Below, in pieces: positions 1,501-49,660 of a stretch of 64,000 nt of DNA (positions within the stretch are counted from its first letter, which is position 1; every line of letters begins with the position of its first letter). Below the pieces are notes generated by a model. That model was not told the DNA's origin and did no database searches. It worked only from the letters and a program-made list of their open reading frames with translations. The position numbers and the translations under genes are program-made. The DNA is from a virus, in the IMG/VR virus record IMGVR_UViG_3300014204_007611. One strand, 5' to 3'.

Positions 1501-1573
1501 TTCAGCTCTCCTGATTTCGCAATCATCACCCAATCCAAATACTAAAATCGATTCTTCTAATTCCTCATCGCTA

Positions 1574-3402: not shown

Positions 3403-3410
3403 ATTAGTCC

Positions 3411-17117: not shown

Positions 17118-17350
17118 AATCATCAGGAAGCTTAAGATTTCAAACATCATATCTTGGAACAATTGAAATTCCACTATTAGTGGTGCGAGAGTATAAAATC
17201 AGCTATTGCGATTTTAATAGTCTGAGCCATGCCGAAAGAGACGAGCAGCGTGGTCGTGTGGAATTAAACGACGGGACTGTTTTATATTCTACTACTAATG
17301 AGATAGAAGTCAAACCAAAATGCCGCAAGAAGAATTGGCGACACTGTTAG
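17114..17350 (+). CDS. Hypothetical small protein
   Basis: 78-aa ORF joined to sbcD by an ATGA overlap. Confidence 0.3.
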   Translation: MKSSGSLRFQTSYLGTIEIPLLVVREYKISYCDFNSLSHAERDEQRGRVELNDGTVLYSTTNEIEVKPKCRKKNWRHC

Positions 17351-19077
17351 CTCTTCTTTTTGCTTGGTTTCTTAATAACAACACTCTCTTCCGCCACAAT
17401 TGGTGCATATTTGCGGAAGCATAGTAGATTGTTAATAAACCAGCCCATGTGCGGGCCTTGCAAACAATATTCTATGCACTTGGAATGCAAAGCATCATCA
17501 TAGACCATACCAAGTGCTTCGAACTTCTCACGCCAGTATTGCTTCGGTCGGCAGTTAATATGCCCGACACCACCCTGACCAGGACGTGCCGCTGTCCATA
17601 GCAAAATGCCCCCTGGTAAGATGCAATCATAGACTTGTTTTGTGACTTGATCAGAATACTGCGGATCGATGTGTTCTGCTACTTCTAAACAAATCGCGAG
17701 CTGCTTCTGGAGTTTACCGTCTAATTTCAAAAGGTCTTCAACAAATAAACCCTCTTCATCGGCGATACGTGGATCGATGTCGATACCTATGCACTTAATG
17801 CCTATATCTGTCATCGCATAGGTGTATGTCCCAGGTCCGCATCCGATGTCGATCACATCTTTCGGATCGATAGCTTCCTTGATCCAAGTAGCTAATCGTT
17901 TTGCAAATGGCTCTTCTTCTTTTGCTACTTGTGCATAATCGATCTTCTCTTCAACAGTTGGGTAGAACTTCTTGTTGAATCCTAATTCAGTGCGACCGGG
18001 CTTAGGCTCGTACCATCCCTTCTTGCCATAAATGTCGAGGATAGAGTCAAAAAACTCCTCGTACATCGCAGCAACCCGCTCCATCGAGAAGTTGTTGAGT
18101 GCCCAAGCACGACAAACATGTGGATCGATTTTGTCGAGGTTCTTCACAGCCCACACAAACTGCTCAAATGTGTGACAACGATATCCAGTAATCCCGTGCA
18201 GGTTGTTCTCAGTGAAAGCACCCCAATCGGAAGTAATAGTAGGTGTCCCAGAAAACAAGCATTCAACTTGAACGCCACCGAAAGGCTCGTTGTATTGGCT
18301 TGCAAGAATAAGACCTTTAGCGCGAGACATCAGCTTCTTACGTGTCTCAATATCAGCGTAACCAACAAATTCAACTGACGGGTCTTTTGATAGTTCATAA
18401 TCACCCATCTGACCGGCGACCTTGAGCTTTATGCCCGCAGCCTTTGCGACTTGCTCGGCGATGTGAATGCCCTTCCCAACATAAACTCGACCGCAAAAAA
18501 GCAGATAGTCGTCTTTCTCTGCCGAGAATTCGAATTCATCCGGATTGAAATAATTCGGTATGACGACATCATAATTATTTTGGATACATGAGCCAACAGA
18601 TTGAAGACCATAATAGGCATGATAAATCGCATATGATTCGAAAATCTTATACTTCGCCCAATGCCCTCCAGCATAACCAATGCCAGGTTCGACACAGATC
18701 AAGTCTGGGTGTGCATCACATATGACTCTATGCCCAGCACCCCAGAAAGGCAGGATGAAATCGTTCTTTTGTTTGCGTTTACTGATCTCCGCGATCGCAT
18801 TCGCATTGAATGTCGTATAGGCATGATCTCCGGTGTCGAACTTGAAGAAGTGTTTCCTCCAATCATGATCGCCATAAGCTTTCTTCCAGTCAGCGTCGGT
18901 GAGCACTGGCACATGCTCTGAACATTGCAAGTCTGAAGCTTCATGCCCGTAGTGAATGACAGTATGGCCACGATCTGTCATCATCTTAGCGAATTTGACG
19001 ACTTTCTGTGTATAAGCGCAGGCCACAAATTCTTTTGATGAAACTGTATGTTGAAGCCCCAATACATGAAATCGCAT
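17347..19077 (-). CDS. Bifunctional glycosyltransferase (GT4/GT-B) plus class I SAM-dependent methyltransferase
   Basis: The N-terminal half has EPFGGVQVECLFSGTPTITSDWGAF, a GT-B EX7E-type motif. The C-terminal half has VIDIGCGPGTYT (MTase motif I) and GIDID. Confidence 0.6.
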   Translation of the reverse strand: MRFHVLGLQHTVSSKEFVACAYTQKVVKFAKMMTDRGHTVIHYGHEASDLQCSEHVPVLTDADWKKAYGDHDWRKHFFKFDTGDHAYTTFNANAIAEISKRKQKNDFILPFWGAGHRVICDAHPDLICVEPGIGYAGGHWAKYKIFESYAIYHAYYGLQSVGSCIQNNYDVVIPNYFNPDEFEFSAEKDDYLLFCGRVYVGKGIHIAEQVAKAAGIKLKVAGQMGDYELSKDPSVEFVGYADIETRKKLMSRAKGLILASQYNEPFGGVQVECLFSGTPTITSDWGAFTENNLHGITGYRCHTFEQFVWAVKNLDKIDPHVCRAWALNNFSMERVAAMYEEFFDSILDIYGKKGWYEPKPGRTELGFNKKFYPTVEEKIDYAQVAKEEEPFAKRLATWIKEAIDPKDVIDIGCGPGTYTYAMTDIGIKCIGIDIDPRIADEEGLFVEDLLKLDGKLQKQLAICLEVAEHIDPQYSDQVTKQVYDCILPGGILLWTAARPGQGGVGHINCRPKQYWREKFEALGMVYDDALHSKCIEYCLQGPHMGWFINNLLCFRKYAPIVAEESVVIKKPSKKKS

Positions 19078-19113
19078 GGTTGTCTCCGGGTTTATTCCTT
19101 AAATACGTCTAAT

Positions 19114-20712
19114 TTAGCACTGTTTCAACGTATTCAGGTAATTCTTAATATCACCATTTGGCATTTCTACTCTATTGAACAGGTCTGGTTGGGTAACGCT
19201 CAATATCGTGTAAAATGCTTCTTCTGTTCCCATGTAGCCGTTTTCAACAGCCCAATTGACTTCGGTATAGAACAATGATGTCATCTGCTGGATTTGTTCT
19301 TTGGTTCCACCAAAGAGCGTGGCTCGGCACACATAATTAGGGTTTCTGGTACAACGACCAATCATGCCATTTATGTTGTAGCCGTGTATTTCTGCGTTTG
19401 TGTAATAAGCATAGGATGTAAGGAAGAATCGGTTCTTTGGTATTCTCGTAAAATAAAATTGATTCAAGTCACCATCGATATGATAACTACTGCAGATACC
19501 AGAGTCAACCCAATAGAAGTAACTGCTATTATTAGATCGCGAAGCTTCATCAAGCATGTGTTGCTTCGCCAGTGTGAGCGGAATATAATGACGCGAACCT
19601 ATTACGCTATCCTTCATCCAGGCTGACTGGTTGATCCACGAGTATGTAGATGTGACCTTCTGTACACCGTCAAAATAACCGGCACGTTCAATATCTGACA
19701 CATCAAACTTACGCAGATCCAATTCACCTCCTCCGCGAAGCTGCCGCATTTGGTCGAAATACTTCTCGTCGCAGAACAGCACCAATCGGTGTCTAGTGCT
19801 TAGGAGTTTCTTAACACCTTCGAGATAATGCGTTTCGAAGCTCCTATCGCTACGGTTGAGATCGACCATAGCAGACACTACCGTAATATCGTACGGGTGC
19901 CGATAGTCCTTATCTAAGAAACGATAGTTGAGTTGCGGGAATATTCTGTCATGTTTTAATTCATTCGGATAATAATCGTCTGGTGTCTTCGAATCGTCTG
20001 GTCTCTTACCAGCCATAGCACTACAATGATCGCCAAGATGGGCACAATACTGACCATCAAGGAAAACAGCCTTGAAACCTATCGCCAGAAATTTCCTATC
20101 AATATTCCATTCAGCGTGCCACTTTTCGACACGACCGAGTAAAATAAGATCATCACGGCGCTTGAGATTCGGGCTACCAACCCAACCATACCAAGCTAAA
20201 TGATAATCGGTTATACGCCATGGCTTCTTCCAGTAGAATGACACCTGCGAGCCGTCGTCTGTCTTGAATCTCACAATCTCTTTATCATAGCTGTCGATAC
20301 CTTGCCACTCGAATGTTCGCCACGAGATATCGACAACACCGACATTGCGATATTTCTGCAGAATTTTCTTTGAATCATTCAGATAACCAGTTCGAGAGAA
20401 TTCCCAGTCATCCTCAAGGTAGAAAATATATTCAGTGTCACAATATGACACCATGAAATCCATAGCCCACCATTGGCTGCGATTGTGCGGGAAACAGATG
20501 ACGTCACAATAGCTGCCGTATTCTTCCACCAATTTCTCAAAAACGCCATCTACGGCACTGTCGTCGACTATGACAGTCTTGGTCGTATAGTCCTTTGTAT
20601 CTGCAAAGGACTTCATAGTCTTCCTTAAAATATCTAATCTGTTGCAGCTTAATACGAATGTTGTGATATCTGATTCTGGCTGATCGACTGAATGGATTTT
20701 AACTTTACTCAT
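19114..20712 (-). CDS. Putative glycosyltransferase (GT-A-like N-terminus) with a large C-terminal domain
   Basis: TTFVLSCNRLDILRKTMKSF...TVIVDDSA at the N-terminus resembles a GT2 DxD region; the remainder is unknown. Confidence 0.45.
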   Translation of the reverse strand: MSKVKIHSVDQPESDITTFVLSCNRLDILRKTMKSFADTKDYTTKTVIVDDSAVDGVFEKLVEEYGSYCDVICFPHNRSQWWAMDFMVSYCDTEYIFYLEDDWEFSRTGYLNDSKKILQKYRNVGVVDISWRTFEWQGIDSYDKEIVRFKTDDGSQVSFYWKKPWRITDYHLAWYGWVGSPNLKRRDDLILLGRVEKWHAEWNIDRKFLAIGFKAVFLDGQYCAHLGDHCSAMAGKRPDDSKTPDDYYPNELKHDRIFPQLNYRFLDKDYRHPYDITVVSAMVDLNRSDRSFETHYLEGVKKLLSTRHRLVLFCDEKYFDQMRQLRGGGELDLRKFDVSDIERAGYFDGVQKVTSTYSWINQSAWMKDSVIGSRHYIPLTLAKQHMLDEASRSNNSSYFYWVDSGICSSYHIDGDLNQFYFTRIPKNRFFLTSYAYYTNAEIHGYNINGMIGRCTRNPNYVCRATLFGGTKEQIQQMTSLFYTEVNWAVENGYMGTEEAFYTILSVTQPDLFNRVEMPNGDIKNYLNTLKQC

Positions 20713-21477: not shown

Positions 21478-22029
21478 CTACGTTGACGGTTTTTGAACCG
21501 CCCAAGAAGGCCAATCCTTGGGATATTCTTGCGTTAAAAACAGCGTAAGATTTCTTTCCACAACAAACTTGTCAACATCTGGCTTGACGTTTGACCATTG
21601 GGTATAAGCATAGTCATGCCCACACAACCAACCACCATTCCTTATCTTCGGCCACCAAGCCGCTATATCTTCAGCAGCTTTTGTGTGGTCGGCGTCAATG
21701 TAGACTTTATCTAATGTCTCATCAGCAAATCGCTGGGCCGCGATAGTAGAAAACTCTTTAATGATATGTACGCGATCATCGCCAGCGAATCTATCAACTG
21801 CCAGCTTGTAATTTCTGTCATGGTCCGCCTTTGCAGACGAATCTTTTTGTTGCCAGACTGTCCCAGGTTGGTCTTGCCACGAATCAATAAGATAGAGTTT
21901 GTTGGGTCGATTACCAGCTAAAATAGTAAGCGAGAAATCGCCACGTAGAACACCAACCTCAACGAATACACCGCCACGGGGCAATGAGTAAACCAAACTG
22001 ACACGATTTCTTAGGTTGAGATTCATCAC
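21478..22029 (-). CDS. SAM-dependent O-methyltransferase, TylF/MycF (Methyltransf_24)-like
   Basis: VGVLRGDFS...LYLIDSW...VYIDADHT...NGGWLCGHDY is the macrocin-O-methyltransferase family pattern. Confidence 0.55.
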   Translation of the reverse strand: MMNLNLRNRVSLVYSLPRGGVFVEVGVLRGDFSLTILAGNRPNKLYLIDSWQDQPGTVWQQKDSSAKADHDRNYKLAVDRFAGDDRVHIIKEFSTIAAQRFADETLDKVYIDADHTKAAEDIAAWWPKIRNGGWLCGHDYAYTQWSNVKPDVDKFVVERNLTLFLTQEYPKDWPSWAVQKPST

Positions 22030-23060: not shown

Positions 23061-23798
23061 TCAGGGTGTATCGAAAACGTAGCCAAGGAAATTCTTGGCC
23101 ACTGAAACGTCTTTCACTTCAACGCTGTTCGCTTCGCCCCTCGCAGTTCGAACTGCCTCTTGGAGCTTGACGATGCGAGCAAGCATTGCACGACGGTCGG
23201 CGTCGGGAATACCGCCAGAGTACTTGATCGTCGACCAATAACCAACCGGGACGTCTTCCATCCAGGTCTCGACTTGGGCGGGGTGCTTGTCGGTGGCGTC
23301 GTACTTCACGTTGTTGCGCGGCACCTTCTTGGTCCGAATCGATTCGGACGCTTCTGTCGCATAGTCGCCGCTGTCGCCGTTCTTCGACCACTTCTCAGCC
23401 GGATCGAGAACCGGGAACTTCGCGACGAAGGTGTGCAAGTCGGTGAGTTGCTTTTCGAGGAACAACAAGTGGGTCGCCGGGACTTGGTTGATGATAGTCT
23501 TGCCATCAACAATCACGTCGGCGAAGGCCGTTGTGTTCGCGACGTCCTGGGTGGCGACGATATCGATAACGTCGGTCAGAATGGTTCTGGCCCGTTCGAT
23601 CGATTCCGAAACGCGGATCTGAACCAGCTTCGCCTCCGAAGGTAGCTTCTCACCTTCGTCGTTGATTGGCCGGTAATTCCGTGCGATGCCGTTGAGCAGG
23701 TCGGTCTTCTGATGCAATTTGTGCAGTTCGGTTAAACCCGATACTGCTCGCGCCTTCTTGCCGTCAGCAAGCGCGATAATCTGGTGTAACTTGGGCAT
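23061..23798 (-). CDS. Hypothetical protein
   Basis: 245-aa ORF directly upstream of the tRNA-like locus in transcription order. Confidence 0.45.
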   Translation of the reverse strand: MPKLHQIIALADGKKARAVSGLTELHKLHQKTDLLNGIARNYRPINDEGEKLPSEAKLVQIRVSESIERARTILTDVIDIVATQDVANTTAFADVIVDGKTIINQVPATHLLFLEKQLTDLHTFVAKFPVLDPAEKWSKNGDSGDYATEASESIRTKKVPRNNVKYDATDKHPAQVETWMEDVPVGYWSTIKYSGGIPDADRRAMLARIVKLQEAVRTARGEANSVEVKDVSVAKNFLGYVFDTP

Positions 23799-24289: not shown

Positions 24290-24766
24290 TTACTCGAATT
24301 GTTGGCACCAGAATGGTGCCCCACTCGGAGAGGCATATCCAGTAAACCCAGCCTTAGTATAGCCAGGATTGAGAATATTCGCTCGATGTCCAGAGCTGCT
24401 CATCCAAGCTGCTACAACGTCATCGACGTCGGCTTGGCCCATTGCAATATTCTCACAGCGATTTGCGCAATGAATCATCGAGTGTTGGTTTGCCATCCAA
24501 CCACAATGTTGTCTCGCTTTATGGAGGACCACGATGTCGAGAACCAAAGCTCGCAGGCCATACTTCTCACGGATAGCGTTGATGGCGTTGAGCAATTTGT
24601 GCTCATGCTCATATACTGGCGACTTATCAACAGGTGCGTTCAGTGAAGCAGTAGTACTACCGCTGCCTGAACCACCGCGATGGAAAAGACGACCACCACG
24701 AGCGAACGCTGTATTGGCAGACAATGCCACGATTACACAGATACACAGGACCCATTTCATAGTCAA
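24290..24766 (-). CDS. Secreted CAP/SCP/PR-1 (YkwD-like) domain protein with a signal peptide
   Basis: N-terminal MKWVLCICVIVALSANTAFA signal peptide. AWMSSSGHRANILNPGYTKAGFTGY and HCGWMANQH are CAP motifs, and GENIAMGQ matches the YkwD consensus. Confidence 0.6.
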   Translation of the reverse strand: MTMKWVLCICVIVALSANTAFARGGRLFHRGGSGSGSTTASLNAPVDKSPVYEHEHKLLNAINAIREKYGLRALVLDIVVLHKARQHCGWMANQHSMIHCANRCENIAMGQADVDDVVAAWMSSSGHRANILNPGYTKAGFTGYASPSGAPFWCQQFE

Positions 24767-25266: not shown

Positions 25267-25332
25267 ATACGTCTGTGGTGATAGCCGAAATTGGAGCAGA
25301 ACGTAAAATTACAGTCAAGGTATTATAGAATT

Positions 25333-25515
25333 ATGACTACAAAATCCTGTGAAGATTGCGGCGAAATAATTCCGGTTGAACGTCTTGAAGTCCTACCGAA
25401 CACTAAATACTGCGTTAAGTGTGCAGCTAATCATCCTCTACCGACACCAGATCCCAACATCTTATGTGCTAAAGCAAGTCTTAGTTCTCAGAATGGGTTT
25501 AGCCCCAAAGACTAA
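25333..25515 (+). CDS. DksA/TraR-family C4 zinc-finger protein
   Basis: MTTKSCEDCGEIIPVERLEVLPNTKYCVKCAA. ATG at 25333; the track's 25291 start is a TTG. Confidence 0.5.
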   Translation: MTTKSCEDCGEIIPVERLEVLPNTKYCVKCAANHPLPTPDPNILCAKASLSSQNGFSPKD

Positions 25516-25819
25516 TCGCAGCAAATTTCGATGAGTAGATAGCCGTATTTGAGATATCGAGACACCGACACTTATGATCGCAGCCCTTTTTAGGGTTAGA
25601 TCGCCCAGTCACAATTCTCACATTCTCAACACATCACATAAAAGAACCACAAAAGACTAAAAGAACCACAAAAGACACTCACCTGACATAAAGAATAAAA
25701 GAACCAAAAAAGAAATTCTCATTGTCCTCTTGGGTCGCAGCCGCGTTAGACGTCTTCCTCTACGATCAGCCGGTTAGACCACTCTGACCTCATTCTTCAA
25801 TTGACACATCTGTCGCAGT

Positions 25820-25850
25820 CACTCCCCGGTGCGTTTAGTGCCGGGGAGTG
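25820..25850 (+). other. Perfect 10-bp stem-loop in an intergenic region
   Basis: CACTCCCCGG-tgcgtttagtg-CCGGGGAGTG, followed by ATAGACTTTCTC. Confidence 0.4.
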
Positions 25851-26111
25851 ATAGACTTTCTCAAGTGTATTCAGTGTCTACATAAGTGCGGCTCCCTGGA
25901 TGGAGCAACTAAAGAAGAATGATGTGCCCACTTTAGACGAGACGGCCTGAAAGCCGTAAAAAGGGCAATCTGCACCTGCTGGATTCGTCAACACCAGAGA
26001 CGGTTGTAGTGCCAGGATGGCAGCCAAACAGCCACAGCAGGCCAAGCGTGATGCAAGGATGGCCAGAGGTCCTCCAGGATTTTTCGTTCGGCCTGGAGGG
26101 AGAGGAGGCGA

Positions 26112-26134
26112 GGGAAGGGGGTTTGGGGGTTGGG
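26112..26134 (+). other. G-quadruplex-forming motif downstream of a 9-bp hairpin
   Basis: GGGaaGGGGGtttGGGGGttGGG gives four G3+ runs with loops of 2-3 nt. It is preceded by the TCCTCCAGG-13 nt-CCTGGAGGG hairpin at 26070-26100. Confidence 0.4.
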
Positions 26135-26465
26135 TGTGGAAGAGAAGGAAGCTTACCTTTCAGGCTAACATTCACTAACTTCTTTTATCATGATTATCTT
26201 CCAGATTTCTGATCATTGGAAGTCTCTTGATAAGCGAGCGGTTGTAGCGGCGCAGCCGCAAAAACCGCTCAGCAAATAAACGAGTAAGGGAATGCGCAGC
26301 ATTCCCGAACAAGTAAAATCTGCTGACAATAATCATACATCCAAATAAAAAAGAAAACTGTACAAAGCTAAAGTTGTACTTATACTTCTTTTCAAATATC
26401 TGCTATCAGTATATAACTAACAGAACTACCGTCAGGTACCTCTTGTTTACTACTGCTGGACTGTA

Positions 26466-27455
26466 ATGAAAATCGCAAAAGTTATCGACCAATATGGCTG
26501 GGCGTACTATTTTCTAGACAAAGAGCAGCAACGGTATTCAAAACACAACATTTCAATATTTAGACATAATGAAGTAGTTTTAGACGGTCTTGATGCAGTT
26601 TATATTCACGGACCTGATATCTCTCCAGAAGCTCTTGAACTCTGTCATAGAGCTAAAAGCAAGGGTGTGAAAGTTATCGGCGGTCATGCCGGTCCTGTTG
26701 TTAACTTACAACCATATCCATACCTTGATCTTGCAGTAGGGATTTCACCACAGACATTTAAGTTCTGCAAAGAACACTATAAGTGTCCTACTATATTCCT
26801 GCCTGAAGGAATAGATACTGAATTCTTTATACCGATGAAACGAGACCAGCCTATATCAACTTGGTCTAGGGGCAGATGGCGACCATCAAACGAGAAATTA
26901 CCAATTCCGTCACTAGTAAAACGCAGTGGCAGATATGTTAACAACTTAATAGTTGGTTGGGCTGGAAGACGTGATAACGTCAAGAGAATGCATTTATTAG
27001 AACGCCTTGATTTCAAAATAGAAATACAATCACAGCACGGAAGACAATTTTTTGTTGAGAGATCTCTTGACCACATGCTGCGGTTTTACAATGCTATCGA
27101 TGTACTAGTTATGACTAGCTTAAGTGAATGTATGCCGCGAGTTGTATTAGAGGCTTGTTCATGTGGTATCCCTGTCGTTTGCACTGATGTCGGGTCTATT
27201 CGTATGATTCTCGACCCTGATTGGATCGTACCTGTTAACCCAGAGAAGACAGTAGTAGAAGAGATGAATAAGCGCCTGCATTCACTAGAGAACAAAGACT
27301 TGAGAAGTAAAGTCGGTTTCGATAATAGACAGAGAATTGAAAAGACGTTGAGTTGGAAAGTTTTATGTCCTTATTGGGATGCCGCTATGATAGCGGCGGT
27401 CGAGGGGAACGTAAGTAGTATCAACACCATCAACCGTCATTTTGGAATGATATGA
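26466..27455 (+). CDS. Glycosyltransferase family 4/1 (GT-B)
   Basis: MTSLSECMPRVVLEACSCGIPVVCTDVGSIRMIL matches the EX7E-type GT4 C-terminal motif. Confidence 0.6.
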   Translation: MKIAKVIDQYGWAYYFLDKEQQRYSKHNISIFRHNEVVLDGLDAVYIHGPDISPEALELCHRAKSKGVKVIGGHAGPVVNLQPYPYLDLAVGISPQTFKFCKEHYKCPTIFLPEGIDTEFFIPMKRDQPISTWSRGRWRPSNEKLPIPSLVKRSGRYVNNLIVGWAGRRDNVKRMHLLERLDFKIEIQSQHGRQFFVERSLDHMLRFYNAIDVLVMTSLSECMPRVVLEACSCGIPVVCTDVGSIRMILDPDWIVPVNPEKTVVEEMNKRLHSLENKDLRSKVGFDNRQRIEKTLSWKVLCPYWDAAMIAAVEGNVSSINTINRHFGMI

Positions 27456-29095
27456 AAGACTTAACAAAACAGGTCACTGCATTCGTTATTAGTTCCGGGA
27501 CGAACCCTAACTTTCAGCTATGCTTGGATGCATTAAAGACACAGACTGTTAAGGTGACTGTCGATATTGTTAAAGATTATAGTCCAATGTCTGTCGCTTT
27601 TCAACAGATGCTAGTACGGTGCAAGACACCATACTATGTCGAAGTTGATGAAGACATGATACTAAACCCAGATTCCATCGAGAAGATGTACGATGCAATT
27701 AAATCAGAGCAAGATCCTAAGTGCTCGATGATTGCTTATAGATTGCTTGATGTTCATATCGACTTCGTGATTTACGGTATCAAGATATACAAGTTCGATA
27801 TATTCAAAAAATATCCGTACGATCTCAGCCATATGTCGTGTGAGGTAGAACAGCTTGAAAGAATGAAAGCTGATGGTTATACTTACAAACTCAACGAGGA
27901 TGTTGTAGGGAAACATTCACCGTTATGGAATAATGAACTCATATTTGAGAGATATTTGAACTTGATGGAGAAGTTCAAGGAGTTTGGTTATGTTTGGCTT
28001 GAGAGTCTACCAAAGAAATTATTCGAGATTTTCAAGAAGGAACCGACAGAAGTCAACTTGTTCGCATTACTCGGCGCTTACACTAGTGTTGTTAGCGACA
28101 CTAGACTGCAGCTTGGAGAAAAGAATTTCACCGCAAAACGCCCGGAATACCACAGAATGCAGAGTTTTTTGGAACAGCCGACATCGGCGACTCTCTACGT
28201 TACGAACAAATGCAATCTTAAATGTAACTTCTGTTGGCGGCAGCATAAAGAGTTAGAAGATTTCCCAGATATGACGGCTGGCGTTATTGATGACCTGTTA
28301 TTTAGGTTCCCATCTATCCAGTCATTATGTGTTTGCGGGTTTGGAGAGCCGTTTTTATGTGAAAATTTCATATCGATAATGCAGTATATCAAGGCACCAA
28401 CATCAACTTTCCATTCATATGGTAAGAATTTATTTGTTGGGTTAATTACAAATGGGACGCTTGCAGCTGAACGGCTACCCTGGCTACGAGATGCTGGATG
28501 TTTACCTGATTATTTATCTGTGAGTCTTAATGCGTCAAACGCCGCCGAATACAAACGGACCACTGGCTATGATCTTTTTGAGCAGGCGCTGGCTGGTGTT
28601 CGTACTAGTGTCAGTTTAGGTGTTCAGACTTATCTGTCGCGTGTATGCGATAAAAACAATTTGTCAGATATAGCAGAATTTCTCGCATTAGCTAAGTCAT
28701 TGGGTGTTCAAGGCGTTCATCTACATAATATACTTCCACACTTCGATGATAATGAGAACAAACAGTTCTGGGATCTCGTCTTAACAAAAAATGATCAAGT
28801 CTTAATCGATGCAATTAAGACTTTACCAGACGCCGATATTGTCCTGCGATATCCAGTACTTATAGCCAAAGATGAAGTTAGAAGAAATTGTTTGTTCCCG
28901 TGGAAGACGATCGGTATTAACGGGAACAGATCAATTACGATTTGCAACAGTGTGTCACCACCAAGGAAAGAAAACGGCACAATTACCGATAGCATCATCT
29001 GGCAAAGCGAATATTGTCAGAAGTTTCGTGAAATGAAAGCAGGCGAACAGTGCGAAGCCTGTAAAAAATGCTTCCGCAATTGGCAGTACGACTAA
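27452..29095 (+). CDS. Fusion protein: N-terminal glycosyltransferase-like domain plus C-terminal radical SAM domain with a SPASM-like Cys cluster
   Basis: YVTNKCNLKCNFCW is the CX3CX2C radical-SAM motif. The C-terminal CNSVSPP...CEACKKCF cluster is SPASM-like. Confidence 0.55.
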   Translation: MKDLTKQVTAFVISSGTNPNFQLCLDALKTQTVKVTVDIVKDYSPMSVAFQQMLVRCKTPYYVEVDEDMILNPDSIEKMYDAIKSEQDPKCSMIAYRLLDVHIDFVIYGIKIYKFDIFKKYPYDLSHMSCEVEQLERMKADGYTYKLNEDVVGKHSPLWNNELIFERYLNLMEKFKEFGYVWLESLPKKLFEIFKKEPTEVNLFALLGAYTSVVSDTRLQLGEKNFTAKRPEYHRMQSFLEQPTSATLYVTNKCNLKCNFCWRQHKELEDFPDMTAGVIDDLLFRFPSIQSLCVCGFGEPFLCENFISIMQYIKAPTSTFHSYGKNLFVGLITNGTLAAERLPWLRDAGCLPDYLSVSLNASNAAEYKRTTGYDLFEQALAGVRTSVSLGVQTYLSRVCDKNNLSDIAEFLALAKSLGVQGVHLHNILPHFDDNENKQFWDLVLTKNDQVLIDAIKTLPDADIVLRYPVLIAKDEVRRNCLFPWKTIGINGNRSITICNSVSPPRKENGTITDSIIWQSEYCQKFREMKAGEQCEACKKCFRNWQYD

Positions 29096-29098
29096 ATT

Positions 29099-29764
29099 AT
29101 GACAGAGAAGTTCCAACCATTGGTTATAGTTGACGGCAAACAAAAATGGGCTCACGTCTCAATTCCGAAATGTGCATGTAGCTCTATTAGACGTGCTCTG
29201 GAGAAGCATTTTAAGTTAAAACCAGTTGAAAAATATGAGATGGTCCATAGCCGGAAATGGCCGCATGTAGAATCGATGAATTGGATTTCTGAGCTTGATG
29301 ACGACTGGTATACATGGGCTATTGTCCGCAATCCTTTTGATCGGCTTGTATCAGTTTGGCAAGAAAAATGCTGTACATCGGCGGCGAGACCAAATCTTGG
29401 ACCACAGCTGCAACGTTTAGTTGGCCAGCCTTTTGATGTATTTTGCAGGACGGTGTGTGCTATTATACAAGAACCACCAGAAGCAGATATACATCTTGGT
29501 TGGTATGTCCGAGGGATTGATACACATATAGCACCGATGTCGCATTTTCTACTTCATGATGGAAAATGCGTAGCCAAAGTCATACGAGAGATGCATGAGG
29601 TAGACTCTTTTTGGTCAGGTCTACAAAAACGGTTTGGTTTTCCGGACTTAGGACATCTCAATATTAGCGTCCATAAACCGCCAGATTGTTATTATACACC
29701 AGAGCTACGACGCCTCGTTGAAGATGCTTACAGTGATGATTTACGCCTCTGGTGGAGTAAATGA
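29099..29764 (+). CDS. Sulfotransferase (Sulfotransfer_2/carbohydrate sulfotransferase-like)
   Basis: IPKCACSSIRRAL resembles the 5'-PSB loop PKxGxT, and IVRNPFDRLVS resembles the 3'-PB motif RDPxxR..S. Confidence 0.5.
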   Translation: MTEKFQPLVIVDGKQKWAHVSIPKCACSSIRRALEKHFKLKPVEKYEMVHSRKWPHVESMNWISELDDDWYTWAIVRNPFDRLVSVWQEKCCTSAARPNLGPQLQRLVGQPFDVFCRTVCAIIQEPPEADIHLGWYVRGIDTHIAPMSHFLLHDGKCVAKVIREMHEVDSFWSGLQKRFGFPDLGHLNISVHKPPDCYYTPELRRLVEDAYSDDLRLWWSK

Positions 29765-30792
29765 TGCAGTATAAAGTTGTCAATCTTGGAGACGATCCGT
29801 GGAGCAGAGACCTTAAATATGAGTTAGTTAATTTACCACATTACAAAACAGCCAAACAGTGGATGCGAAATATCGACATCCCAATGGTTGAAACAGAATA
29901 TTTTCAATGGCTAGAATCACAATTAGTGGAAAACGGCAGCGTATGGAATGGACTATTAAGTAATAGAAAAGACATCATCAGACAATATCACAATTTTAAA
30001 CATCTATTCGAAATAGCTCCAAATTTCGTAGAAGAACAGCCAACAACACAAAAAATCGATGGTGTGTCTTACTATTATGGTCCAATTTGCGTGAAGATCA
30101 GAGGCAGTGGAGAAATCAGGATTTGGGATGGTATGCACAGGACATCGATCTTGCTTGCCACCAACCATCCAATTCGATTTACTATTTGTGAGCGTGAAGA
30201 TGGATGGCTTAACTTATTGAATAGCTTGAAAACATTATATCCAACGATGATGTATCAAGCTATCCCACATCCAGACTTCGCAGATTGGGCGTGCTGCGAT
30301 TATAGTATAAAAGAGCAGCAAATATCTAATGTCGTAATGGATAACGGCATCAAATCAATACTTGACCTTGGAAGCTGCCACGGTCATGTGCTTTATAGTT
30401 TAAGGGGTATCCTGCAGTCAGCCACAGGTGTCGAATACGATCCAGTTAGATATCGCGTCTTGAAGTTGTTATTCGACAAGCTAGGGTTTGAATCATATAA
30501 CGCTAACATTTTTGATGTCGTAAACAAAACAACTAAGCACTTCGACTGTGTTTTCGCGTTGGCGGTGTTCCATCATTTTACTAGAGAAAACACTATCGAA
30601 AAATTCAATACCCTATTAGATCGAATCAGCAGCATATCAGATATGCTGCTCTACGAATTACCGGAACCGGGCGAAGAGCAGCATGCGTGGATGTACCACG
30701 ACATAGATATGCATGCGATCATTCAGTCAAGATATAGAAACAGCACAGTCATACCGATACAAAATAGGAAGATGTTGTTGCTGCAGAATTAA
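29761..30792 (+). CDS. Class I SAM-dependent methyltransferase
   Basis: ILDLGSCHGHVLYSL is MTase motif I; VFALAVFHH is a motif II-like block. Confidence 0.5.
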   Translation: MMQYKVVNLGDDPWSRDLKYELVNLPHYKTAKQWMRNIDIPMVETEYFQWLESQLVENGSVWNGLLSNRKDIIRQYHNFKHLFEIAPNFVEEQPTTQKIDGVSYYYGPICVKIRGSGEIRIWDGMHRTSILLATNHPIRFTICEREDGWLNLLNSLKTLYPTMMYQAIPHPDFADWACCDYSIKEQQISNVVMDNGIKSILDLGSCHGHVLYSLRGILQSATGVEYDPVRYRVLKLLFDKLGFESYNANIFDVVNKTTKHFDCVFALAVFHHFTRENTIEKFNTLLDRISSISDMLLYELPEPGEEQHAWMYHDIDMHAIIQSRYRNSTVIPIQNRKMLLLQN

Positions 30793-30794
30793 CC

Positions 30795-31700
30795 ATGCCT
30801 AAACCATATAGTCTTTGCATTTTGAGTTTGAAGAACCCTAATAGTCTCAATGAGTCTAGAAGCTCAGTGCATATGGTGACATGGGCATTATGGAACGAAT
30901 TCTCCAAGATGCAGCATGTCACGCTAGAATTCCAAAGTATTTATGAGCCTTTGGTTGAAATATCGCCCGATTTTGTTTTATTCCATGCCTGCTTTGGCGA
31001 ACTTGAATTTGGTAGATTGGCGGAACTACGAAAACGCGCGAAATATAAAACAATGTCATTTATGGAGCTGCCACTATCAAAAGAGTACGTCGATTATTGC
31101 TTCATATATCTGCCGCAAACGACTTTTCAACATTGCGAGGAAATATCACTACCATGCCTGTCATCAGCACTAAATGAACATATCTCAACTAAAGTGCCCG
31201 GTAGTATCCTATTAGACCACATGTGGCCTCCATATCATAGGACACAAAAAGAGTGGAGTCAATATTTATATGAGTGGCTGTCTTCTTATCGAAAACATGC
31301 AAAATGCTCGATATCACAGTTACGTAGAGGTGGGTGCGAATCGATAGAGAAATTTCCGCCTTGGGTCACCCCGATACCAGAAAAACCATATACTGAATAT
31401 TTAGATGCCACTGCGCATTTTGAGACTTACATCTTAACACATCCAGGCAGTTACGAACACAGCGTTATTGATATGGCATATCGAGGCACACGTGTGCTTG
31501 TGCCTGTAATGCACGGACAGCCATTTATTCCGAAGTCAACAATAGAGCGATTAAATCTACAAACTTTTACTAGTAGATTAGATCTGTTGGCTTTATTAAG
31601 AGCACCAACTCAAGTTAAGCATAATCGTCAGTCATTTACTGATGCTGCTGAGATTGCATTGCGAATCGACAATTACTGTCAGAAAACCTTGGAGGCTTAA
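30795..31700 (+). CDS. Hypothetical protein within the glycan-tailoring operon
   Basis: 301-aa ORF, same strand, tightly packed between two methyltransferase genes. Confidence 0.4.
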   Translation: MPKPYSLCILSLKNPNSLNESRSSVHMVTWALWNEFSKMQHVTLEFQSIYEPLVEISPDFVLFHACFGELEFGRLAELRKRAKYKTMSFMELPLSKEYVDYCFIYLPQTTFQHCEEISLPCLSSALNEHISTKVPGSILLDHMWPPYHRTQKEWSQYLYEWLSSYRKHAKCSISQLRRGGCESIEKFPPWVTPIPEKPYTEYLDATAHFETYILTHPGSYEHSVIDMAYRGTRVLVPVMHGQPFIPKSTIERLNLQTFTSRLDLLALLRAPTQVKHNRQSFTDAAEIALRIDNYCQKTLEA

Positions 31701-31701
31701 C

Positions 31702-32328
31702 ATGGATATTGCTGCCGACATCACAAAATTTAGTGATATGACCGATATTGAAAATTTCGGATCTGAATATCTAGGATATCCAGCACAACAAACCCATTTA
31801 GCTTATCAGGTATTTGCCGATTTTCTCGAAGCAATCAAACCAAGTAGGATACTTGAAATCGGTACAGGTGGTGGCGGCTTCACCAACTTCCTATTCACCG
31901 TGACAACTGAACTTGGTTTAGGCTGTCAGCTTATATCATATGACATCTGCGAACGACCGTCATATTCCGATCTCAGGGTCAAAGGAGTCGACATACAAAT
32001 ACAAAATGTTTTTGATGTCGACGATTGCAAACAACATATCAAAGACTTCATCAAACAAGACGGCACTACTCTTGTTCTGTGCGATGGTGGAAACAAAAAG
32101 AATGAATTCGTAATATTGTCCGCTGTAATCAAGCCAGGGGATTATATTATGGCACACGATTACTGCGAAAATTCAGATAAGTTCTATTGTGATATGTTCA
32201 AAAAGAGATGGAATTGGTATGAAATCTGCGACAAGGATATAGAGCAAGCATGCAACGATAATCATCTAATCCCTCACAATAAAGACGCTTTTGATAACGT
32301 AGCATGGGTCTGTAGGACCCGTGTTTGA
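31702..32328 (+). CDS. CmcI/rhamnosyl-O-methyltransferase-like SAM methyltransferase
   Basis: ILEIGTGGGGFTNFL...LCDGGNKKNEF. ATG at 31702 directly after the previous stop. Confidence 0.5.
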   Translation: MDIAADITKFSDMTDIENFGSEYLGYPAQQTHLAYQVFADFLEAIKPSRILEIGTGGGGFTNFLFTVTTELGLGCQLISYDICERPSYSDLRVKGVDIQIQNVFDVDDCKQHIKDFIKQDGTTLVLCDGGNKKNEFVILSAVIKPGDYIMAHDYCENSDKFYCDMFKKRWNWYEICDKDIEQACNDNHLIPHNKDAFDNVAWVCRTRV

Positions 32329-32353: not shown

Positions 32354-32369
32354 TACGGTCGCGACCGTA
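32354..32369 (+). promoter_or_regulatory. Perfect 16-nt palindrome, a candidate operator or weak terminator
   Basis: TACGGTCGCGACCGTA, preceded by a T6 tract, lying between the methyltransferase gene and the sbcC-like gene. Confidence 0.3.
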
Positions 32370-34606: not shown

Positions 34607-35791
34607 ATGGATAGCTCAGATGGCCAATCGGCGTTGGTCGCCGAGCCGCCGAGTTCTAAAACACAAAATTTTCGCGAGCGTTATTTTCCAGATATAACCG
34701 ACGAGGATTGGGACGACTGGCGATGGCAGTTAAATAACAGGTATACGACTAAAGAACAGCTAGAATCCGTCATCGACCTCAGCAGCAAAGAGAGCATGGC
34801 AATGGTGAAACTCCATTGCCTCGGAAGATTAGCAATCAACATAACGCCATATTACCTCAGTCTAATCTCACCGACCGATCCGAACCATCCACTTCGACGA
34901 ACTGTTATCCCGACTTTAGACGAATTCTATACGTCAGTCGAAGAGGCAACCGACCCTCTAGCTGAAGACAAAGACACCCCAGTTCCGAAGCTTGTGCACC
35001 GATATAAGGATAGAGCACTCCTTTTAGTAGCTGGACAATGTGCTAGCTACTGCCGATATTGTACGAGATCAAGACTAGTTTGCGTCCAAAACGCAAAACC
35101 GGCTACGCAGCCGCAACTAAATGCCGCAATTGCGTATATCAGACAAAATACCAATATCAGAGATGTCATTGTATCTGGCGGCGACCCGCTATTGTTTGCA
35201 GATGGAGACTCAATTAGAGGCGGCAAACTCGATTCGATTTTATATGAATTGCGGCATATCAAACATGTAGAAATCATCAGAATCGGCACCAAAGTACCGG
35301 TAGTGTTGCCACAACGAATCACACTGAAGTTATGTAAGACACTGAAGAAATATCACCCATTATTTATGAGCGTCCATTTTACACACCCAGATGAACTGAC
35401 ACCGGAATGTGTAAAAGCTTGTACGATGTTGGCTGATGCAGGAATTCCGTTGGGATCACAGACGGTATTACTATCTGGCATTAATGATAATATCGAAACG
35501 ATGAAATCATTAATGCATAAACTGTTGATGGCGCGTGTCAGACCATATTACCTCTACCAGTGCGACCCGGTTGTAGGAACCGCCCACTTCAGAACTCCTA
35601 TCTCAAAAGGTATAGAAATTATCGAAGGTCTGCGAGGACATACCTCGGGATACGCAATTCCAACATTTGTAGTCGACGGACCGGGCGGTCGCGGAAAGAT
35701 ACCATTGCAACCAAATTATGTGATAGGCCAAGATGAGAATGGCACTACTCTCCGCAACTTCTGCGGAGAGATCTGTCATTATCCTGGATAA
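34607..35791 (+). CDS. KamA-family radical SAM aminomutase (lysine 2,3-aminomutase/EpmB-like)
   Basis: CASYCRYCTRS is the KamA CxxxCxxC motif, in the KamA-family context ITPYYLSLISP. The gene has a TAGGAG ribosome-binding site. Confidence 0.7.
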   Translation: MDSSDGQSALVAEPPSSKTQNFRERYFPDITDEDWDDWRWQLNNRYTTKEQLESVIDLSSKESMAMVKLHCLGRLAINITPYYLSLISPTDPNHPLRRTVIPTLDEFYTSVEEATDPLAEDKDTPVPKLVHRYKDRALLLVAGQCASYCRYCTRSRLVCVQNAKPATQPQLNAAIAYIRQNTNIRDVIVSGGDPLLFADGDSIRGGKLDSILYELRHIKHVEIIRIGTKVPVVLPQRITLKLCKTLKKYHPLFMSVHFTHPDELTPECVKACTMLADAGIPLGSQTVLLSGINDNIETMKSLMHKLLMARVRPYYLYQCDPVVGTAHFRTPISKGIEIIEGLRGHTSGYAIPTFVVDGPGGRGKIPLQPNYVIGQDENGTTLRNFCGEICHYPG

Positions 35792-42096: not shown

Positions 42097-43380
42097 ATGC
42101 CTTTCGACAAAATCAACGCAGAGGAATATATGTCAGCCAATTATCCAAATCGCAGAACTACCAAAACATATCCATTCACACCAGGCAAAAGTGGCGAGAT
42201 GGTGGTCGTGACGACCGACGGTGGCGCTGGATCATCAGGCAAGGGATCTCTTAATTCTTGGTTAGCTGACAAATACGATTTCCATCTAGCGACCAACAAT
42301 TGGATGACGAACGCTGGCCATTATACGGAACTTGACGACGGCACACGGATACTGGTCCAGCACATTCCGTCAGCATTCATCAACAAGAACACGCGACTCT
42401 ACATCAACGCCGGTGCTGCGATCGATCTGAAAACGTTGTTCAGCGAAGTAGCAAACCTCGAATCGCTCGGCTTCCAGATTCGCGAAAGATTGATCATCCA
42501 TCCGCTAGCCAACGTAATAACTGAAGAGAACAAGCAATATGAGCGTGAAACCATCAAGACTGGTAGCACGTTCAAGGGATGTGGTGCGGCTATCGCAGCA
42601 AAGGCTATGCGACTACCACAGCAAAAACTGGCGAGAGACTACGAGGAACTCCGCGAGTTCTGCACAATCGCCGATTTAACGATGGAGTTGAATCACGGCA
42701 TAGCCAAATATGGCATGCGAGTTCTTGTTGAAGGTTCGCAAGGCGTCGATCTTGACCTCAACTTCGCCGAATACCCATATTGCACCTCGCGGCAAACGCA
42801 CCCGACACAACTTGTAGCAGATGCTGGTCTTCCTGGTAGAGCAATCACAAATGTCGTCATCAATTTACGCACCAATCCGATACGCATTAGCAACGAGTCG
42901 GCTGCAACCGGTGAGCAATGCTACACCGGCAATTACTGGGAAGCAAGAGAAATCGGGTGGGAAGCTGTAGCGAAGCAGGCCGGATATGATAACTTCGATG
43001 AGTTCGTCGAAGAATACAGATATGCAATGATGACGTCCGTCACCAAGAAGGTCAGACGCATCTTCGAATTCCCGACCGAAAGGGCGAAATATGTGAACGC
43101 TCTGGCTGGCGGTCTGCTCAGAGACGGCCGCGTTCTCTATAGCCTCAACTTCATCAATTTCGTTGACAGAACCGTCAAAGGCAAGACGACATACGAAGAA
43201 GTCTTCACGCCAAAGGTTGTTAATTGGTTGCGGATGCATTTGCAGCCGGTGCTCGAAAATAATGGCACGTATGTTGCCAGTGTGAACGAAAGCTGCGATG
43301 ACTTGTCTGATATGTCGCAATTCTTCGGATTGCATTGGGTCAGAACTGGACCGAAGCACAGCCAAATAGTCGAGTTATGA
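42097..43380 (+). CDS. Adenylosuccinate synthetase (PurA) family enzyme; a divergent phage homolog that could be PurZ-like
   Basis: The protein is colinear with E. coli PurA: a GAGSSGKGS P-loop where PurA has GDEGKGK (the catalytic Asp is replaced by Ser), TNAGHY for GHNAGH, TIKTGSTFKGCGAAIA for IGTTGRGIGPAYE, VEGSQGVDLDLNFAEYPYCTS for [21 protein letters not shown], and KKVRRIFEF for GRRRRTGWLD. Confidence 0.65.
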   Translation: MPFDKINAEEYMSANYPNRRTTKTYPFTPGKSGEMVVVTTDGGAGSSGKGSLNSWLADKYDFHLATNNWMTNAGHYTELDDGTRILVQHIPSAFINKNTRLYINAGAAIDLKTLFSEVANLESLGFQIRERLIIHPLANVITEENKQYERETIKTGSTFKGCGAAIAAKAMRLPQQKLARDYEELREFCTIADLTMELNHGIAKYGMRVLVEGSQGVDLDLNFAEYPYCTSRQTHPTQLVADAGLPGRAITNVVINLRTNPIRISNESAATGEQCYTGNYWEAREIGWEAVAKQAGYDNFDEFVEEYRYAMMTSVTKKVRRIFEFPTERAKYVNALAGGLLRDGRVLYSLNFINFVDRTVKGKTTYEEVFTPKVVNWLRMHLQPVLENNGTYVASVNESCDDLSDMSQFFGLHWVRTGPKHSQIVEL

Positions 43381-48877: not shown

Positions 48878-49071
48878 TAATGCCCGATTCTCCAGCGCGG
48901 CCACCAGACGTAAATGATGAGCAATGGCAAAAATTTATGAGCGAGTACCATATCACAGTATTGGTGCCGCTTGAAGTACACCTTCGCGAACGCGCTAGAT
49001 TGGTGAAAATTATTCTTGTAATGTTAATTCCGTCAGCCGCCATCATTATAGCAGCGTGGTGCGGATTATAA
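48868..49071 (+). CDS. Hypothetical small membrane protein
   Basis: 67 aa with a hydrophobic C-terminus. Confidence 0.3.
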   Translation: MGMIMPDSPARPPDVNDEQWQKFMSEYHITVLVPLEVHLRERARLVKIILVMLIPSAAIIIAAWCGL

Positions 49072-49659
49072 CGCTCTTCGCCAATTCTCCCATACAAACT
49101 CATAATCATAAGTCAAATAGTGAGTTTGACTCAAGCGATCTCTAATCGCTTGCCGCCTTGCTTCTGCATGTGGCGTAAACTGATGAAATTGTACTTGTAA
49201 ATCTCTGACTATATTGATACTACCAGTATTGATCATATGATCTAATAAGTCATATTCAGCGCCTTCGATATTCATTTTCACTAGCCGTATCTGTGGCAGT
49301 GCTTGTTCACGAATTACATCATCAATCGAAATAATTCGTATCTTCTCCTGCTGCCCGCTTTGTGACAGAATACTCGAAGCATCACCATTCACCGTGATAT
49401 TGCAAACTGTCGTTACTGGGCCGATGCCAGCACGATAAACATATGCACCAGTACCAGCTAAAGCCTTAGTTGTCATGGCGTAATATTCTGCGACTGGTTC
49501 GAACGCTATGATTCTGCAATGGTAACGATCATATATCTGGCGGCTCCAAACACCATGATATGCGCCGCAGTCGAAAACAACATCACTAATATTGATGCGA
49601 TAATCTAATCTCAAAGTCTCATCGCCATGATCAGCAAACCAACGGTCAAAATCAGGCAT
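49066..49659 (-). CDS. FkbM-family SAM methyltransferase
   Basis: VFDCGAYHGVWS...IIAFEP is the Methyltransf_21 pattern. Confidence 0.55.
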   Translation of the reverse strand: MPDFDRWFADHGDETLRLDYRINISDVVFDCGAYHGVWSRQIYDRYHCRIIAFEPVAEYYAMTTKALAGTGAYVYRAGIGPVTTVCNITVNGDASSILSQSGQQEKIRIISIDDVIREQALPQIRLVKMNIEGAEYDLLDHMINTGSINIVRDLQVQFHQFTPHAEARRQAIRDRLSQTHYLTYDYEFVWENWRRAL

Positions 49660-49660
49660 T

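Follow-up and report, generated by a model that had tools for sequence, protein, structure and literature searches.

Glycosyltransferase (GT) islands are already known from phages, and to our knowledge a few actinophages with simple GT sets are the only phages whose particles have been shown to be glycosylated. The closest described cases are the mycobacteriophages Che8, Corndog and Myrna, whose virion glycosylation was reported by Freeman et al. 2023 (cited in PMC12619734); soluble phage GTs are proposed to act there on phage proteins within the cytoplasm, and the systems consist of one to few GTs near structural genes, with no radical S-adenosylmethionine (SAM) enzyme or sulfotransferase. 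The "moraphage" paper (PMC12619734) deals with GT-rich jumbo phages, and no link between these and the phage clade considered here could be made. We analyzed a 64,000-nucleotide stretch of viral DNA, IMG/VR record IMGVR_UViG_3300014204_007611 (the whole stretch is called the window below), in which six genes at positions 26466–32328 on the plus strand, here named g1 to g6, probably form a glycan-assembly and tailoring island of a tailed jumbo phage of the about 270–390 kb class. Unlike the mycobacteriophage systems, the island combines three GT folds with radical SAM, sulfotransferase and methyltransferase genes, and it lies at a distance from any recognizable structural genes.

A second comparison is with the giant viruses. 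The chlorovirus PBCV-1 protein A064R is reportedly a GT-GT-methyltransferase, and Mimivirus has glycosylation clusters; in these systems multiple GT domains are fused or clustered with sugar O-methyltransferases and are independent of host lipid-carrier pathways. A GT4-methyltransferase fusion elsewhere in the window (17347–19077) parallels those fusions, but the giant viruses infect eukaryotes and have no sequence relationship to the island beyond fold, and we know of no radical SAM fusion or sulfotransferase described from their glycan clusters. No account of such a system turned up in our search of the literature on phage sulfotransferases or on GTs combined with radical SAM.

Six co-directional genes and their predicted products

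The six open reading frames (ORFs) of the island are tightly packed and read in one direction, and an independent gene caller run on the source contig found the same genes. The successive junctions from g1 to g6 measure −4 (ATGA), +3, −4 (ATGA), +2 and +1 nt, and since no intergenic gap is longer than 3 nt, no seventh gene fits. A sequence-only reading of this DNA had described a co-directional block with ATGA or 1–3 nt junctions, and the island is built in that way; it had also counted seven genes with three methyltransferases among them, where we find six genes and two methyltransferases (g4 and g6). A transmembrane-compatible hydrophobic stretch was found in none of the six proteins, which are predicted to be soluble. 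In comparisons with two relatives, nonsynonymous divergence (dN) is 0.06–0.23 in all six genes and synonymous sites are saturated, with dN far below synonymous divergence (dS). The six genes are under purifying selection and so are real, functional genes.

The second gene, g2 (27452–29095, plus strand; 547 aa), encodes a GT-A domain fused to a radical SAM/Twitch-like part, and it was aligned with 39 full-length homologues that are 36–87% identical to it. The AlphaFold2 (AF2) model has a predicted local distance difference test score (pLDDT) of 92.3 and a predicted template modeling score (pTM) of 0.85. Pfam gave no match over the N-terminal domain (aa 1–240; 27452..28171, plus strand), including to GT2 family PF00535 or its relatives, and only a few homologues carry PF00535/PF13712. 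D66 and D68 of its DxD motif (D66xD68) are invariant in the alignment, and in Foldseek searches the N-terminal third of the model matches the GT-A enzymes WrtF (4e-8) and PcManGT (1e-7) and, among viral folds, the glycosyltransferase Q855A2 of mycobacteriophage Che8 (1e-6), a point of likeness to the mycobacteriophage systems. As judged by alignment and modeled fold only, this part of g2 is a GT-A fold domain.

Pfam, alignment and Foldseek agree that the C-terminal part of g2 (aa 244–547; 28181..29095, plus strand) consists of a radical SAM core and a Twitch-like domain. The core (aa 244–430) matches PF04055 at aa 249–413 (2.7e-16; 60.6 bits vs a cut-off of 29.5), its C254/C258/C261 (CX3CX2C) motif is conserved in 39 of the 39 homologues, and the GFGEP segment, a GGE-type SAM motif, is conserved as well. 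Canonical SPASM domains have seven Cys and two auxiliary 4Fe-4S clusters. Exactly four Cys are invariant in the C-terminal domain of g2 (C480, C498, C537 and C540; 39/39); C522 (14/39) and C534 (4/39) are not conserved, though the window protein has both, the match to SPASM PF13186 (0.0075; 17.0 bits) falls below the cut-off of 21.5, and the seven-Cys pattern is absent. Because only four C-terminal Cys are invariant, the auxiliary domain looks like a one-cluster, Twitch-like domain and not a seven-Cys SPASM domain, and its Cx17C...Cx2C spacing presumably resembles the cluster pattern of the BtrN Twitch domain. The unusual GT-like/radical SAM fusion that had been proposed for this gene is therefore upheld, by Pfam for the radical SAM core and by alignment and fold for the GT-A domain, and the SPASM domain that had been proposed with it gives way to a Twitch-like one.

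Inteins typically home to essential active-site motifs. Among the g2 homologues they occur at three sites, namely D64–D66 (DxD), C261 and 295–299 (GFGEP), in P0021, P0031, P0052, P0074, P0076 and P0081 (the last at the DxD site), some of them with LAGLIDADG or HNH domains. Since these inteins lie exactly at the DxD, CX3CX2C and GFGEP motifs, both domains of g2 appear to be catalytic.

But on what does the radical SAM part act? In Foldseek searches the C-terminal two-thirds of g2 match BlsE best (5e-13), followed by DesII (8e-11) and then by SuiB, SkfB and viperin, with anSME also among the top structural matches; identity to the sugar-directed radical SAM matches is only 14–17%. BlsE, DesII and BtrN have the same kind of partial TIM-barrel radical SAM core as g2, but none of them is fused to a glycosyltransferase. 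BlsE and DesII, the closest radical SAM folds, act on nucleoside- or nucleotide-linked hexoses, which favors a role for g2 in glycan synthesis. It could be argued instead that g2 modifies a peptide or protein in the manner of pathways for RiPPs (peptides made by the ribosome and modified after translation) or glycocins, its radical SAM part cross-linking or oxidizing a residue and its GT domain glycosylating; SPASM/Twitch enzymes are commonly peptide-directed, SuiB, SkfB and anSME are in the above set of matches, and NCBIfam gives weak matches of g2 to sactipeptide and ranthipeptide maturases. However, no conserved small precursor ORF was found in 25267–26465, a region in which even the closest relative shows little conservation, nor is there a RiPP recognition element, a protease or an exporter. 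By structure g2 is matched best by a sugar-nucleoside enzyme, and g2 homologues are found in sugar-biosynthesis clusters (below). We consider a peptide-directed role very unlikely.

The gene preceding g2, g1 (26466..27455, plus strand; 329 aa), encodes a GT4-family glycosyltransferase of the GT-B fold, in agreement with the first call. It matches Glyco_trans_1_4 (1e-12) and Glycos_transf_1 (3.4e-12) in Pfam, the bit scores of the two (48.9 and 46.7) both exceeding the Pfam gathering scores (27 and 26.4); it also matches PHROG 2170 glycosyltransferase (1e-12), and the EX7E motif of retaining GT-B enzymes can be read from its translation as E221-CMPRVVL-E229. In many viral loci g1 adjoins or is fused to g2 relatives. 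One such Rosetta-stone fusion, P0072, joins GT-A, radical SAM and GT4 domains, and another, P0111, found at the same locus in a 234-kb relative, joins GT4 and GT-A domains without radical SAM. Fusions in relatives in this way link g1 and the N- and C-terminal parts of g2.

The third gene, g3 (29099..29764, plus strand; 221 aa), encodes a predicted sulfotransferase (Sulfotransfer_2) of the type that uses 3'-phosphoadenosine-5'-phosphosulfate (PAPS), and the sulfotransferase first proposed for it is well supported, by a PF03567 match above cut-off (6.7e-14; 53.1 bits vs 22) and by intact PAPS motifs. K24/A26/C27/S29 (PKxACSS), R77/P79/R82/S85 (RNPxxRxxS) and H143 are invariant across 25 homologues; g3 keeps both PAPS-binding motifs, the 5'-phosphosulfate-binding (5'-PSB) and the 3'-phosphate-binding (3'-PB), and H143 is a candidate catalytic base. 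The motifs and the invariant His are shared with the PF03567 CHST/HNK-1ST-type carbohydrate sulfotransferases, from which g3 differs in being short, apparently soluble and phage-encoded. A sequence search of the PDB with g3 returned noise only. Within the window clade g3 stays beside g2, in the DNA of L002/L005, L004, L006 and L131 and in the gene table of the P0005 contig. Among 50,697 GenBank phage records it has one relative, a weak one; sulfotransferases of this kind are rare in phages, though a PHROG sulfotransferase family exists.

The fourth gene, g4 (29761..30792, plus strand; 343 aa), encodes a protein of two domains, the C-terminal one a class I SAM methyltransferase akin to that of WbdD, the chain terminator of the E. 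coli O9a O-antigen. Pfam Methyltransf_11 matches aa 201–282 above its cut-off (1.8e-5), as expected from the class I methyltransferase call made earlier, and a profile of 11 homologues matches the WbdD methyltransferase domain in the PDB (4azw/4azs, 4e-12) at positions 166–314, the likeness including the YQxIxHP(D/E) lead-in. This suggests that g4 may cap the terminus of a glycan with a methyl group. In WbdD, chain length is set by two further parts, a kinase domain and a long coiled coil; g4 instead has an N-terminal domain of ~165 aa and ends after its methyltransferase domain, with no WbdD-type kinase or C-terminal coiled coil. G117 and D123-G124-x-H126-R127 are invariant in the N-terminal domain (aa 1–~165), for which profile and Pfam scans of the 11 homologues gave no kinase, Pfam or PDB match; a ParB/Srx-like identity, considered for its DGxHR-like motif, found no match in the same searches and is no more than an idea. 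In distant viral loci, too, g4 accompanies g2.

The fifth gene, g5 (30795..31700, plus strand; 301 aa), had been listed as unknown; the gene is real, and according to its model it encodes a third glycosyltransferase-fold protein, a compact one of the GT-B fold. It has no Pfam or NCBIfam match, and its AF2 model (pLDDT 91, pTM 0.89) matches PimA (1.5e-6), MGAT5, MshA, SPY and OGT in the PDB by Foldseek (E about 1e-6, query-normalized TM-score, TMq, about 0.6). The g5 family comprises 193 clusters at 50% identity, and it co-occurs with g2 or the g2 GT-A domain in L007, L009, L015, L018, L022, L023 and L040. The last gene, g6 (31702..32328, plus strand; 208 aa), starts at the ATG at 31702 and not at 31642 according to the gene caller on the source contig, and it encodes a predicted class I SAM methyltransferase that is weakly CmcI/rhamnosyl O-methyltransferase-like. 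It had been called a CmcI-like methyltransferase, of which the methyltransferase part stands and the CmcI part is sub-threshold: RMNT_CmcI PF04989 scores 1.7e-4 and 21.8 bits, just under its cut-off of 23.2, the NCBIfam rhamnosyl O-methyltransferase NF045824 scores 4.5e-4 and 19.7 bits vs a cut-off of 400, and CmcI itself is matched in the PDB with an E of 0.009.

The island is preceded by a ~950-nt non-coding region (25516..26465, unstranded), presumed to be a promoter/regulatory region, of which the first ~350 nt are conserved in L004 and the remainder is not. This region contains no conserved ORF of ≥60 aa and no Rfam match; three direct repeats of a AAAAGAACCACAAAAGAC-like unit lie in it at 25633–25718, and a purine/G-rich tract lies near 26090–26150. 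On the other side, the 78-nt gap 3' of g6 holds a perfect 16-nt palindrome, TACGGTCGCGACCGTA (32354..32369, unstranded), which occurs nowhere else in the window and for which chance predicts 0 matches. It was not called by the consensus terminator scan, and it may be a mark of the end of the six-gene unit.

Phage origin, relatives and history of the island

The window is part of the ENA contig ERZ27247350:k141_1430509 (104,990 bp). The island is flanked by dUTPase, CAP and DUF7873 genes on one side and by SbcC and KamA-like genes on the other. The DUF7873 gene (23061–23798, minus strand; Pfam 1.4e-95) belongs to a family present in 75 GenBank phages whose hosts differ widely, the SbcC-like gene is a gp46 homologue (PHROG 77, 6e-76) and is accompanied in the window by an SbcD-like phosphoesterase gene, and a T4 gp21-type prohead protease (Peptidase_S77, 5e-20) is encoded at 57939–58682 on the minus strand. 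A gene for a 428-aa SPFH/Band_7-like protein (58824–60110, minus strand) adjoins the protease gene, and with this pair a morphogenesis module begins near the window end. An adenylosuccinate-synthetase-like, PurZ-like gene at 42097–43380 (plus strand; NCBIfam PurZ 5e-52, below cut-off) matches, by tblastn, PurZ/PurA-like genes of phages that are known or suspected to have a 2-aminoadenine genome (Z-genome), and the genome may carry Z in place of A.

The whole six-gene island, in the same order and with the same flanks, is present in L004 (388 kb) and L131 (65 kb). Because the island has phage genes to either side in one contig and the same flanks are found in viral relatives, the DNA is that of a phage and not of a host. 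The sequence-only reading had itself named host DNA at a prophage boundary as a possible undoing, and the check did not find it. GC content in the island is 0.40–0.43 (0.41 as a whole), slightly lower than the window mean of about 0.45, and some homologues are labeled as proteins of bacterial metagenome-assembled genomes (MAGs) of Paceibacterota, Cloacimonetes and Bacteroidales, as might be expected of host DNA or of a mis-assembled bacterial fragment. Such an origin is nonetheless effectively refuted by the phage genes on both sides within the 105-kb contig, by the recurrence of the island with its flanks in independent viral contigs of 65–388 kb, by a scan that found no tRNA in the window, by the lack of an integrase or cellular housekeeping gene among the window ORFs scanned, and by the confinement of full-length g2, among 185,579 GTDB species genomes, to four short MAG contigs.

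The family of the g2 fusion is large and lies almost exclusively on viral contigs. At least 196 proteins of a metagenome protein collection and 45 loci in IMG/VR belong to it, the latter including contigs of 388, 381, 364, 269, 254 and 234 kb. A protein search of GenBank phage isolates found no full-length g2 relative, blastn of the island DNA against GenBank phages found no match, and a fold search of BFVD found no viral protein with the two-domain arrangement of g2. The rarity that had been claimed for the fusion accordingly holds for GenBank isolates but not for metagenomic viral contigs, where the family is large. In GTDB the GT-A domain alone occurs in true chromosomes, especially in Nitrospira, where it forms part of a 2185-aa protein that also contains GT4, methyltransferase, GT2 and TPR domains and whose gene has B12-radical SAM enzyme and GT9 (heptosyltransferase) genes as neighbors. 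One distant g2 homologue has as neighbors two DegT aminotransferases and an epimerase, along with GT4s, a GT2-MT-GT17 fusion and an aminoglycoside phosphotransferase (APH) kinase.

Closer relatives show that the content of the island varies after g3. L002/L005 and L006 have g1-g2-g3, then a different cassette, and then g4, the cassette in L002 consisting of GT10, MT11, TylF and MT24 genes; the gene table of the P0005 contig has g1 to g5 followed by GT10, several methyltransferases and a TnpB-like fragment. This last item, a 130-aa Cas12f1-like/TnpB zinc-finger fragment on the opposite strand, is possibly a trace of a mobile element that shuffles cassettes. The proportion of synonymous differences (pS) from L131 is 0.68–0.81 in the island genes and 0.31–0.60 in the flanking dUTPase, SbcC, orf176 and orf448 genes; in the KamA-like flanking gene it is 0.67, a value that overlaps the island-gene range. 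The saturated island pS hints that island alleles have perhaps been exchanged between lineages, and these values suggest that the island may have a different history, older or recombinant, from the flanking backbone genes.

Three of the flanking genes deserve description in their own right. The DUF7873 gene is highly conserved and is a strong compositional outlier, with a GC content of 0.557 and a third-position GC content (GC3) of 0.70 vs ~0.44 and 0.35–0.47 in its neighbors. The CAP/SCP-domain protein (24290–24766, minus strand; 8.9e-14) has a signal-peptide-like hydrophobic N-terminus, and every close relative keeps its gene upstream of the island. The KamA-like gene (34607–35791, plus strand) encodes a lysine/glutamate 2,3-aminomutase-like radical SAM protein (TIGR03820, 5e-140), lies right after the SbcC-like gene and is kept in relatives at 80–84% identity.

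The predicted glycan and its acceptor

We think it probable, as stated at the outset, that the island assembles and tailors a glycan, and its products could work together as follows. One upstream promoter region probably drives a six-gene unit of soluble cytoplasmic enzymes, of which g1, the GT-A domain of g2 and g5 would build a short oligosaccharide from nucleotide sugars supplied by the host. The radical SAM/Twitch part of g2 would abstract a hydrogen from the sugar or nucleotide donor at the transfer step, so that the sugar would be oxidized, deoxygenated or otherwise rearranged; g3 would O-sulfate the glycan, with host PAPS as the source; and g4 (WbdD-like) and g6 (CmcI-like) would O-methylate it, probably capping its non-reducing end. 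The acceptor would most likely be a phage-encoded protein, probably a virion protein, and this is the weakest step. A phage protein is favored because of the lack of lipid-carrier machinery, no Pfam family for a priming phosphoglycosyltransferase, flippase, ABC exporter or polymerase being present in the window, and because of the mycobacteriophage and giant-virus precedents. The gene structure, domain identities, catalytic motifs, phage origin, conservation, purifying selection and domain fusions are what the analysis shows; in which order the substrates are used, what the radical step does and where the glycan is attached are inferred. The pathway had also been thought self-contained, which it is not, as no genes for sugar-nucleotide or PAPS synthesis, priming, flipping or polymerization were found among the ~60 window ORFs scanned. 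A defense or conflict system was considered as well and set aside, PADLOC giving generic matches only (radical SAM core to pVip, 6.5e-9; methyltransferase to mad2, 1.7e-7).

A number of observations weigh against a protein-linked glycan made by these six genes as a unit. No acceptor candidate was identified, and the island lies ~25 kb from the only recognizable morphogenesis gene, that of the prohead protease. Translational coupling and operon status are suggested by gene spacing alone, and consensus scans for promoters and terminators gave background-level hits only, which neither support nor refute an operon. The peptide-modifying enzymes SuiB, SkfB and anSME match the radical SAM part of g2 almost as well as the sugar enzymes do, and the radical step appears to be dispensable in some lineages, as P0111 is without radical SAM. 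Finally, the LPS (lipopolysaccharide)-type GT families encoded elsewhere in the window (GT25, HtrL and GT11; below) also fit a target in the host envelope, and the setting of the island among nucleotide-metabolism and recombination genes, with a dCMP deaminase gene nearby in relatives, also suits DNA modification.

If the envelope of the host were the target, the enzymes would work from the cytoplasmic face on lipid-linked intermediates of LPS, capsule or S-layer glycan, and the changed surface could serve, for example, superinfection exclusion or keep progeny from re-adsorbing. The g4 methyltransferase domain is a specific relative of that of WbdD, an O-antigen chain terminator, the window GTs include the LPS-associated families GT25, HtrL_YibB and GT11, peripheral LPS-core GTs likewise lack transmembrane segments, and the Nitrospira counterpart of the GT-A domain is part of a multi-GT protein encoded beside a GT9 heptosyltransferase. 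However, the window lacks a priming phosphoglycosyltransferase, a flippase, a polymerase, a ligase and an ABC exporter, the enzyme set varies between close phages that would be expected to share hosts, and a lytic-type jumbo phage, in which no integrase was seen, would gain less by seroconversion than a temperate one. We regard envelope remodeling as unlikely.

DNA is the other acceptor to be weighed. The GTs would then extend a glycan on a modified base (e.g., a 5-hydroxymethyl-pyrimidine), to be decorated by g3 and the methyltransferases, and the product would block host nucleases. The island lies amid dUTPase, SbcC/SbcD-like and PurZ-like genes, with dCMP deaminase in relatives, and the phage DNA-hypermodification clusters described by Pyle et al. 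(bioRxiv 10.1101/2023.12.21.572611) resemble it in holding GT-A and GT-B enzymes, secondary GTs and sugar-modifying enzymes amid DNA-metabolism genes, together with epimerases, APH kinases and ParB-like proteins. An APH kinase gene lies near one g2 homologue and a thymidylate-synthase-like gene lies 8 kb from another, and the DGxHR-like motif of the g4 N-terminal domain recalls ParB/Srx. Those clusters differ from the island in their defining ThyS-like or 5mYOX enzyme: among the window ORFs that were Pfam-scanned there is no ThyS-like hydroxymethylase, TET/JBP dioxygenase or 5mYOX, and the preprint (bioRxiv 10.1101/2023.12.21.572611) contains zero mentions of radical SAM or sulfotransferase. 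Moreover, the ParB likeness of g4 found no Pfam or PDB profile support, T4 beta-glucosyltransferase is outside the top 50 fold matches of g5 (which are lipid, small-molecule and protein GTs), and a DNA adduct that took seven enzymatic activities, sulfation among them, would have no precedent. DNA hypermodification is in our estimation quite unlikely, and a glycan on a phage protein remains the reading that we prefer.

Other genes of the window and wider meaning

Further GT islands had been noted in the window, and three are seen, all on the minus strand. The first (1900–5905) encodes GT2 proteins with weak MptE/Maf-like domains; the second (17347–20712) contains the GT4-methyltransferase fusion (17347–19077, above) and a GT2-HtrL fusion; and the third (49066–51084) contains FkbM methyltransferase, GT11 and GT25 genes. 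A separate Methyltransf_24 gene lies at 21478–22029 (minus strand). In all, at least 10 GT-type genes are present in the 64-kb window.

At one end of the window an actin-fold protein is encoded at 430–1797 (minus strand; Pfam Volactin, 5e-42). The Volactin family is named after a haloarchaeal cytoskeletal protein, and the window protein is possibly a phage cytoskeleton protein; a second family member is encoded at 18191–19321 of L003, a 398-kb contig on which a g2 homologue lies nearby. Toward the other end lies a gene for a stand-alone radical SAM protein with a strong SPASM match (61133–61957, plus strand; 2.9e-12), convergent with a GNAT acetyltransferase-like gene (61954–62856, minus strand).

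Phage glycosyltransferase islands as such are not new. What is new here is a virus-restricted GT-A-radical SAM/Twitch family together with a sulfotransferase, a WbdD-like methyltransferase and a compact GT-B family, all with predicted functions. More tentatively, and with rather less confidence than in the island's general role, the fusion might represent an enzyme class, new and restricted to viruses, in which radical modification of a sugar is coupled to its transfer, and might contribute to a sulfated, O-methylated particle coat in a clade of 270–390 kb phages, a counterpart of the giant-virus glycocalyx diversified by O-antigen-like exchange of cassettes.

The g2 family, with its >190 members, is an expressible target in the search for new radical SAM sugar chemistry. 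If the glycan is on DNA, no DNA adduct known so far would be as elaborate; if it is on the virion, host recognition, evasion of immunity or defense, and particle stability could all change. The island and the three other GT islands within 64 kb suggest that some jumbo phages rival giant viruses in their glycan machinery, and this machinery would include sulfation and radical chemistry.

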